From a virus (lineage: Duplodnaviria > Heunggongvirae > Uroviricota > Caudoviricetes), in IMG/VR virus record IMGVR_UViG_3300025861_000004: a stretch of DNA of 64,000 bases, one strand, 5' to 3'. Made by a program: the position numbers and the translations under genes. The notes under the pieces are model-generated. The model saw only the letters and a list, made by a program, of their open reading frames with translations, was not told the origin of the DNA and did no database searches. This document shows, one piece after another, positions 52,570-53,559 of the stretch (its first letter is position 1; each line of letters starts with the position of its first letter).

Positions 52570-52920
52570 ATGCCGCGTTACCCCATGAGTCAGCCGAGCA
52601 CCCGCGGGTGCCCCGGCATCGAGCTTGAGCCCGGCGTCTACTCCGGGTGCCATGACACCCGCTGCCGTACCTGCGACGGCCAAGGCCGCATCGGGTGGTG
52701 GAACGCCGAGTGCGACGTCTGCTGGGGGCGGGGGTACATGAACGATTGCCCCGTCTGCGCGGACGGCCGCGACCCGGTGCGCCGGCCCGCCGACTTCCCC
52801 GGCGTCCCGATGGCCCGCCACCCGTCGGCCCTCTACTCGCAGTCCTTCTACTCGCCCGCCCTCCAGGCGTACATCGACCGGGCGCGGTCGACCCCGTCGA
52901 CTTCACCTTTACGGAGCTAG
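52570..52920 (+). CDS. Cys-rich (zinc-ribbon) protein
   Basis: AGGAGG Shine-Dalgarno. CRTCDGQGRIGWWNAECDVCWGRGYMNDCPVC. Confidence 0.45.
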   Translation: MPRYPMSQPSTRGCPGIELEPGVYSGCHDTRCRTCDGQGRIGWWNAECDVCWGRGYMNDCPVCADGRDPVRRPADFPGVPMARHPSALYSQSFYSPALQAYIDRARSTPSTSPLRS

Positions 52921-52923
52921 GTC

Positions 52924-53559
52924 ATGGCCTTCATCACCCACAGCAGTCGGTTCATCTACGACCTCACCCGCTCGGTCCGCGAGGGTGAGTACGCGCTCCC
53001 GCTCTTCCAGCGGGACTTCGTGTGGGGGGTCGAGGACGTCCTCAAGCTCCTCGACAGCATCCTCGTCGGATACCCGATCGGGTCGATCCTCACCTGGCAG
53101 CGGTGGAGCAAGCACGTCCGCCAGGTGAGGAGCTTCCGGGGCGTCAAGGAGACGCGGCCGGACGCTGCGCTCGTGCTGGACGGCCAGCAGCGCATCCAGG
53201 CTCTCCTCGTCGCTACCGACGAGGGGTCTAGCTACTACTATGACATCCCGACGAGGACCTTCCGCCACGACCCCTCGGGGGAGGAGAGCAAGGACCGCAT
53301 ATCGGTCAGTCGGTTCCTGCGGGTCACGTCCTTCATGCGCTGGCTCCAGACCCACATGAAGGCGGAGATCGACGGGGACATCGTCCACCACATGGACGAT
53401 GTGATGGGGAAGTTCCGTGACGCTCGCATCGGGGAGGTCGTGATCGCGTGGGACGCTGACCTGGCGTTCGCGCGGGAGTCATTCCGCCGGCTCAACACGA
53501 CGGGCAAGTCGTTCAACGAGCAGGACGTGTTCGCCTGCCTGGAGGCTCCATCAGCATGA
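52924..53559 (+). CDS. DUF262 (ParB/Srx-like nuclease/NTPase domain, GmrSD-N-terminal type) protein
   Basis: GEYALPLFQRDFVW matches the DUF262 I-P-x-F-Q-R-x-x-V-W signature, and LVLDGQQRIQAL matches the DGQQR motif. Confidence 0.6.
   Translation: MAFITHSSRFIYDLTRSVREGEYALPLFQRDFVWGVEDVLKLLDSILVGYPIGSILTWQRWSKHVRQVRSFRGVKETRPDAALVLDGQQRIQALLVATDEGSSYYYDIPTRTFRHDPSGEESKDRISVSRFLRVTSFMRWLQTHMKAEIDGDIVHHMDDVMGKFRDARIGEVVIAWDADLAFARESFRRLNTTGKSFNEQDVFACLEAPSA

Follow-up and report, generated by a model that had tools for sequence, protein, structure and literature searches.

What a phage does with a DUF262 domain that stands by itself is the question raised by a gene in a 64,000-nucleotide stretch of viral DNA (IMG/VR record IMGVR_UViG_3300025861_000004; hereafter the window), which encodes a protein of 211 amino acids (aa) and follows a gene for a 116-aa cysteine-rich protein. 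DUF262 is a nucleoside triphosphate (NTP)-driven sensor module common to the anti-phage systems GmrSD/BrxU, SspE, Menshen, Dazbog, and PD-T4-2. In the characterized proteins it is followed by a DNA-binding middle domain and then by a DUF1524 HNH domain or by neighboring effector genes (PMC10952713, PMC12065111). We found the product of the present gene to be a complete but bare DUF262 (GmrS-type, ParB/Srx-fold) domain. The reading that we favor, given a probability of roughly 45%, is that this protein is an NTP-binding and NTP-hydrolyzing switch or enzyme that would act in trans during phage infection.

The assignment to DUF262 had been made from the letters of the DNA alone (the original prediction) and was borne out by a hidden Markov model (HMM) search, in which the 211-aa protein matched Pfam PF03235 (GmrSD_N/DUF262) with an E value of 1.2e-22 and 81.5 bits over profile positions 3-195 of 199. 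The gathering score of the family is 33.2 bits, and the match is far beyond chance. Both of the open reading frames (ORFs) that had been listed, at 52570-52920 and 52924-53559 on the plus strand, are present in the window. All three signature motifs of the domain, QRxxxW, DGxQR, and FxxxN as defined in PMC12065111, were found in the protein; the second reads DGQQR, just as had been claimed, and the first reads LPLFQRDFVW in place of the reported IPLFQRDFVW, a trivial slip. Across 17 homologues with 22-82% identity, the three motifs and the serine equivalent to that of the RLFDS motif of BrxU are invariant (Table 1). The protein also matched three PHROGs families of unknown function and, in PADLOC, the N-terminal parts of PDC-M55C (E = 5e-22), HEC-05, which is BrxU (E = 3e-20), NsnA, PD-T4-2_A, and SspE.

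Among solved structures, BrxU, a type IV restriction enzyme, is the best match both by profile and by fold and over the whole of the 211 residues. A profile of the 17 homologues searched against the PDB gave BrxU 7P9K as the top match (E = 2e-25), the alignment spanning residues 7-277 of the 587 of BrxU and stopping within its N-domain. The AlphaFold2 model of the protein had a predicted local distance difference test score (pLDDT) of 85.9 and a predicted template-modeling score (pTM) of 0.84, and Foldseek placed BrxU 7p9k/7p9m first (best E = 5.6e-8, probability 1.00, query TM-score [TMq] 0.60-0.67), followed by SspE 6jiv. The modeled structure is thus of the ParB/Srx type and resembles the solved DUF262 domains. 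Membership of this superfamily, with Noc and ParB among the weak Foldseek matches, could suggest a ParB-like partition or DNA-organizing cytidine triphosphatase (CTPase) clamp for a large phage genome. We regard such a role as very improbable: ParB, Noc, and sulfiredoxin appeared only as insignificant matches, those to ParB and Noc having E > 0.1 and TMq of at most 0.33; DGQQR is a motif of the DUF262 type and not of the ParB type; the protein ends at residue 211 without a C-terminal dimerization domain and, by Pfam, without a helix-turn-helix domain; and there is no ParA-like gene within ±10 kb.

The function of the invariant residues is best known from BrxU, which has DGQQR and a serine motif of the RLFDS type in common with the phage protein. 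The RLFDS motif serves nucleotide binding and the dimer switch, with S42 governing the change between dimer and monomer, and motif II positions the NTP gamma-phosphate and takes part in hydrolysis, such that the Q101A and R102A mutants of BrxU bind NTP and do not hydrolyze it (PMC8565348). The equivalents of S42, Q101, and R102 in the 211-aa protein are S45, Q89, and R90, all of them invariant in homologues down to 22% identity. As every residue with a role in NTP binding and hydrolysis in BrxU is kept and invariant, we infer an active switch and not a dead remnant.

The 211-aa protein ends 20 residues past motif III, and its end coincides with that of the Pfam model. It contains no middle DNA-binding domain of the GmrSD-M, SspE-M, or ParBDB kind and no DUF1524. 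The precomputed Pfam hits of the called genes within ±10 kb included no DUF1524 (PF07510), HNH, OLD/Toprim, ABC ATPase, or AAA_15/21, and a Pfam scan of about 57 ORFs of the window likewise gave no DUF1524, HNH, OLD/Toprim, or ABC ATPase. The flanking proteins had no match in Pfam, PHROG, or PADLOC, and in NCBIfam all four genes of the block, the DUF262 gene included, were without a match. The original prediction had noted the lack of the usual DUF1524/HNH partner, which holds for the ±10 kb and for the directly scanned neighbors. Its description of the protein as stand-alone is right as well, but the architecture is less unusual than was implied: 207 unpaired single-domain GmrS homologues have been documented in bacteria (PMC4619093), and similar proteins are annotated in phages and giant viruses, as detailed below.

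A bare domain could be what is left of a longer GmrSD-like gene in functionless decay, and the protein is indeed shorter than most DUF262 proteins, 100 of the 146 nonquery representatives among the best 150 hits of the exhaustive HMM search being 500-599 aa long. The conservation of the gene makes this extremely improbable. The protein is conserved over its full length, at 65-82% identity in related phages and 36-45% in distant ones, with consistent lengths and all motifs invariant; the coding signal is strong, with a GC content at third codon positions (GC3) of 0.91; the end of the protein falls on the domain boundary; and neither a dN/dS near 1 nor frequent frameshifts or stops were seen in the homologues collected.

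Comparison with the known DUF262 systems shows what the phage protein lacks. BrxU has 587-600 aa and continues beyond the domain with a linker and middle region and a DUF1524 HNH domain (DHIYP), through which it forms an intertwined dimer, whereas the phage protein stops past motif III. Since the nuclease and middle domains are absent, the protein is not an enzyme of the GmrSD, BrxU, or SspE kind. Its nearest cellular relatives are PDC-M55C proteins of about 530 aa, to the first ~220 residues of which it is 30-36% identical. The best stretch of the match to the PADLOC PDC-M55C profile covers positions 17-104 of 554, whereas genuine members cover 16-538; when five of the long relatives were tested, all matched PDC-M55C and four did so end to end (E from 1e-64 to 1e-80). 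The match to NsnA spans residues 4-206. PDC-M55C and NsnA proteins have about 300 further residues, which are the DNA-binding ParBDB in Menshen, and adjoin genes for an ABC-type ATPase and a third protein (PMC12065111), but the phage protein has neither this C-terminal half nor the ATPase neighbor and so belongs neither with Menshen NsnA nor with PDC-M55C. In the one cellular context that we read (contig L020, 164-3866), the gene for a 534-aa PDC-M55C protein follows those for an AAA_15/21 ATPase and a 311-aa protein, a three-gene candidate defense arrangement that looks Menshen-like. We also considered whether the nearest relatives of 500-570 aa are of the GmrSD (DUF1524) type and rejected this: only 3 of 103 carry the [DE]H.xP nuclease motif, and when 10 relatives were sampled, seven with lengths of 358-704 aa, Pfam found a single RVT_1 beyond DUF262.

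The original prediction had offered a decoy, a nickase, or an enzyme that degrades host DNA as possible roles. The resemblance to cellular sensors could mean that the phage protein is an anti-defense decoy or a dominant-negative factor, a captured host DUF262 sensor domain of the PDC-M55C/Menshen-like or BrxU type. It might form dead hetero-oligomers with the host protein, tie up the transducer ATPase, or hide from the host sensor the feature of the DNA that this sensor recognizes. The top PADLOC matches are PDC-M55C and BrxU, the whole domain resembles the N-terminal part of PDC-M55C proteins, at least one gene for such a protein sits behind an ATPase gene and a third gene, and the family has been seen only on phage-like contigs. 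We know of no precedent for a phage DUF262 protein acting as a decoy, and the cellular relatives, at 30-36% identity, are distant for poisoning by hetero-oligomers. A passive decoy would further not need all catalytic NTPase residues to be invariant. On the other hand, the function of BrxU relies on dimer cycling mediated by DUF262 (PMC8565348), and the DUF262-only protein TgvA pairs, physically or functionally, with a full-length GmrSD-like protein (PMC11014532). Taken together, we consider a decoy, in any of these modes, unlikely. A more specific version, in which phages of this lineage captured the bare Menshen- or BrxU-like sensor domain as a catalytically active anti-defense factor competing, for instance, for the DNA feature or for the transducer ATPase, we rate a long shot; if true, it would represent a new class of "sensor-domain mimic" counter-defense against DUF262-based immunity.

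Closer in size are the DUF262-only proteins. TgvA of the TgvAB system of Vibrio cholerae, which we liken to the phage protein by its description, consists of DUF262 only and has DGQQR, but it is encoded on a bacterial island and needs the adjoining DUF262+DUF1524 protein TgvB, a neighbor that the phage protein does not have (PMC11014532). Osa, the fertility-inhibition protein of the IncW plasmid pSa, is likewise a small single-domain ParB/Srx protein of a mobile element, with ATPase and DNase activities that share one pocket and are used against rival DNA; it belongs to a different branch of the superfamily and is not a DUF262 protein, and the likeness is a functional analogy taken from the literature descriptions (PMC4619093, PMC5512222). 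Foldseek also gave viral proteins of 141-394 aa whose only annotation is GmrSD_N (probability 1.00, E 1e-7 to 1e-5), among them A0A385EAA0 of Caulobacter phage CcrPW (223 aa), A0A8S5RVK2 of Siphoviridae sp. (259 aa), K4F7C3 of Cronobacter phage GAP32 (394 aa), and proteins of Klosneuvirinae. These share the fold with the 211-aa protein but only 10-22% identity. DUF262-only proteins of phages and giant viruses are thus already annotated, and the present protein is another such and not a new kind of system. A search of the literature turned up no study on the function of any DUF262-only protein encoded by a phage.

We searched for homologues with a word-indexed method, which found 33 proteins, and exhaustively with HMMs over 1.84 billion representatives. 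The closest homologues of the word-indexed search are 206-211 aa long and 66-82% identical, and a second tier has 225-259 aa and 36-39% identity, with a proline-rich insertion between motifs II and III. The exhaustive search gave about 11,000 DUF262 relatives, just 20 of them below E = 1e-30. At its top stand about 13 clusters of 206-272 aa and one 137-aa fragment, separated by a gap in score from the rest, which are mostly proteins of 500-570 aa. This short family was seen only on phage-like metagenomic contigs: no full-length member was found in 185,579 species-representative genomes, where the best match had 43% identity over residues 11-121, the GenBank phages gave at most 32% partial identity, and a pattern scan of IMG/VR found no relative. 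The identical 211-aa protein is present on 14 metagenomic contigs, the longest being 278 kb (JGI 3300010356, Ga0116237_10000068). As searches for near-identical DNA in GenBank phages and PLSDB plasmids gave no match either, the element is not a described phage.

If the DUF262 domain depended on a partner, the partner would be sought among the neighboring genes. The phage could encode a split system in which the DUF262 protein is the sensor and the effector is the translationally coupled 170-aa protein encoded downstream, or the product of some other gene of the 278-kb genome. By analogy with GmrS/GmrD, TgvAB, and Menshen, such a system could serve superinfection exclusion or attack on host DNA. 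Split and multigene DUF262 systems do exist (PMC10952713, PMC4619093, PMC12065111, PMC11014532), and the ATGA overlap between the DUF262 gene and the downstream gene is kept in close relatives and is seen on contig L008 with a nonhomologous 160-aa ORF. In distant lineages, the homologue precedes a GHKL-Toprim protein gene or its putative counterpart (contigs L009 and L014) or follows a DEAD/ResIII helicase gene (L019). Specifically, the homologue of L009 is followed by a 750-aa fusion of GHKL and topoisomerase (Topo) VI-A/Spo11 Toprim that is Topo VIII-like (L009 6868-9120; L011 2191-4443), and that of L014 by a 408-aa ORF without a Pfam match and then a weak HATPase_c gene. The neighbors are conserved only in closely related, globally syntenic phages; DUF1524, HNH, OLD, and ABC ATPase are absent within ±10 kb; and the 170-aa protein shows no nuclease motif, no family match, and no significant fold match. 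We therefore hold a split system, whichever end it served, to be doubtful. We rejected the 170-aa protein as the missing nuclease: in addition to the lack of a nuclease motif and of Pfam, PHROG, PADLOC, and NCBIfam matches, its AlphaFold2 model has a pLDDT of 60, being confident only for residues ~1-80, and its best fold match, an integrase arm-binding domain, is not significant at E = 0.68. This orphan ORF (ORFan) has three homologue clusters and is found at 48-59% identity in close relatives only. The upstream 211-aa ORFan, which had no family match in the same four databases, is similarly kept only in close relatives, at 48-65% identity.

The remaining neighbor is the 116-aa protein, which the original prediction had described as packed with CxxC pairs and had implicitly linked to the DUF262 protein. 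The description is accurate: the protein has eight cysteines (C14, C27, C32, C35, C48, C51, C60, and C63), all of them invariant in its three homologues together with H28 and H84, and the three CxxC pairs (C32/C35, C48/C51, and C60/C63) include two exact CxxCxGxG repeats, the third pair lying in CPVCADG, with two single cysteines besides. From the eight invariant cysteines, it is probably a two-zinc protein. We found no Pfam match (E ≤ 0.1), no PHROG match, and no PDB sequence match (E ≤ 10), and only 2 homologue clusters among 5.8 billion proteins. The DnaJ-type zinc finger (PF00684) has four CxxCxGxG repeats, whereas the 116-aa protein has only two and no match to its HMM. With 87-88% identity in relatives, against 48-70% for its neighbors, the zinc protein surpasses the rest of the local block in conservation. 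The implied link to DUF262 did not survive the comparison of contexts. In the globally syntenic contigs L005-7 and L012-13, where the DUF262 protein is 65-70% identical, an extra 83-aa ORF lies between the two genes, and the more distant family members (36-37% identity), in the lineages of L008, L009, L014, L017, and L019, are accompanied by no homologue of the zinc protein, the 170-aa protein, or the upstream 211-aa protein; the zinc protein as a conserved partner was accordingly rejected. It is a real and strongly constrained gene specific to this phage lineage, one that stands independent of DUF262 and has no demonstrable role as its partner. An unrelated cysteine-containing ORF is present in L009 and absent from its relative L014.

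The contexts of the more distant homologues differ from each other: the neighbors are ORFans in L008, and an HNH_3 homing-type endonuclease is encoded 340 nucleotides upstream of the homologue in L017. With no neighbor common to the distant lineages, the DUF262 gene is the only constant. As separate observations, at the place where L009 has the GHKL-Toprim fusion, L014 (5957-7365) has the weak HATPase_c gene, which encodes 187 aa, and another gene, of 282 aa, without annotation; and the DUF262 region of L009 lies between IS605 OrfB/TnpB genes, at distances of 4.6 kb on the upstream side and 3.1 kb on the downstream side.

We return to the favored reading of a bare NTP-driven switch or enzyme. 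The protein would bind and hydrolyze NTP in the pocket formed by QRxxxW, DGQQR, and FxxxN, and the NTP cycle may gate a weak intrinsic binding or nicking of DNA or a contact with another protein. The precedents for the DNA-binding or nicking option would be single-domain ParB/Srx proteins such as Osa. Small ORFans in the same orientation form a block with the DUF262 gene, and genes of nucleic-acid and nucleotide metabolism lie within ±10 kb. This neighborhood fits a putative role in taking over the host, in conflict between elements, or in DNA transactions and not in virion structure. Several points weigh against this reading. To our knowledge, there has been no experiment on any member of the family, nor has DUF262 itself been rigorously shown to cleave DNA. 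Direct action on DNA is uncertain because the protein is not basic (pI 6.3). SspE, NsnA, and GmrSD contact DNA through the DNA-binding domain that is absent here (PMC12065111). No conserved partner was detected across the lineage contexts, and as the Pfam scan covered about 57 ORFs of the window, a distant split partner may lie elsewhere on the 278-kb contig. Finally, the window holds no capsid or terminase gene, and its phage origin is deduced from other features.

As it stands, this is one more accessory gene of a sort that viral databases already annotate. A minimal, motif-intact phage version is at the same time a natural "domain-only" construct for asking what DUF262 does alone, including its NTP specificity, oligomer switching, and sensing of DNA or of modifications, and the protein is a candidate for tests of counter-defense or of a weapon between phages.

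Table 1. Positions of the DUF262 gene, its motifs and neighbors, and other features of the window
Feature	Position	Strand	Details
211-aa DUF262 protein gene	52924..53559	+	PF03235 match; BrxU profile and fold matches; GC3 0.91
DUF262 motif I, QRDFVW (QRxxxW)	53008..53025	+	Q29, R30, W34 invariant, 17 homologues
KLLDS, counterpart of BrxU RLFDS	53044..53058	+	L42, S45 invariant, D44 nearly invariant, 17 homologues
DUF262 motif II, DGQQR	53179..53193	+	Residues 86-90; invariant in 17/17 homologues
DUF262 motif III, FRRLNTTG (FxxxN)	53482..53505	+	F187, N191, G194 invariant, 17 homologues
116-aa Cys-rich protein gene	52570..52920	+	Eight invariant Cys; two CxxCxGxG; ribosome-binding site AGGAGG upstream
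211-aa ORFan upstream	51925..52560	+	Same frame, 9 nt 5' of the zinc protein gene
170-aa ORFan downstream	53556..54068	+	Start overlaps DUF262 stop (ATGA); candidate partner
145-aa SPFH-like membrane "protease subunit"	54085..54522	+	phrog_11227, E = 2.6e-49
Transfer-messenger RNA (tmRNA)	56024..56383	+	Full-length; Rfam RF00023, 162.5 bits, E = 2.8e-64
tRNA-Ile	7896..7971	-	Anticodon AAT; ARAGORN; Rfam tRNA 52.4 bits
Tandem repeat, 210 bp (70 codons)	14450..15860	+	6.7 copies, 94% identity; within ORF 12590-15898
DDE_Tnp_1 transposase	41144..42487	+	With SWIM zinc finger
Accessory gene set	940-1947, 3883-4662, 28616-30025, 31043-32998, 43905-44780, 45255-45956(-), 46227-47249(-), 57890-58489, 59532-60794, 60791-61108		Genes named in the text

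The three genes at 51925-52560, 52570-52920, and 52924-53559 share one reading frame, with TAG stops between them and gaps of 9 and 3 nucleotides, and the co-directional block, which runs from ~49.5 to 54.5 kb, is free of terminator-like sites. Their GC3 of 0.91-0.95, being 0.91 for both the 116-aa and the DUF262 ORFs, is the coding signature of a sequence with 66% GC, and an AGGAGG ribosome-binding site is located 5' of the 116-aa gene. We considered and rejected a read-through of TAG that would join the three genes: two TAG stops occur between them because TAG is the commonest stop, terminating 19 of 29 sampled genes of the window (8 ended in TGA and 2 in TAA), and the gene coordinates place the homologous genes in different frames in contig L005. 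TGA is the usual stop codon of high-GC genomes, and the excess of TAG thus looks unusual at 66% GC.

The length of the 278-kb contig, its dense short ORFans, its bona fide tmRNA and its tRNA, and its strong PHROG matches hint at a phage, and the contig is probably that of a jumbo phage. Its best link to cultured phages is the 145-aa protease subunit encoded downstream of the DUF262 gene, which is ~60% identical to proteins of ~300-kb jumbo phages of Klebsiella and Serratia (e.g., FBKp24) and is also found in phages of Achromobacter, Ralstonia, and Synechococcus. The accessory genes are typical of large phages and encode DnaJ-domain, HD_4, NAPRTase, 651-aa SPFH/Band 7, and RNase H proteins, an RNA ligase, a fusion of Peptidase_M23 and NUDIX, a DUF84 ITP/XTPase-like NTPase, an N6/N4 DNA methylase, and a DUF4326 protein.

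The remaining observations concern other parts of the window. A ResIII/DEAD helicase ORF of 1102 aa has its C-terminal half made up of the tandem repeat; the local GC drops to 0.55, and the repeat gave many spurious short PHROG and Pfam matches. The transposase gene lies in a stretch from 36 to 44 kb with a lower GC of 0.61-0.63, in which ORFs with the usual codon bias are few; this is probably a foreign island or an insertion sequence within the element. The anticodon of the tRNA-Ile is unusual. The tmRNA, located 2.5 kb beyond the 3' end of the DUF262 gene, encodes the tag peptide ANDNSVRLAA according to ARAGORN; its start, AND, recalls the tags of proteobacterial tmRNAs, which we take as a weak hint to the host and nothing more.

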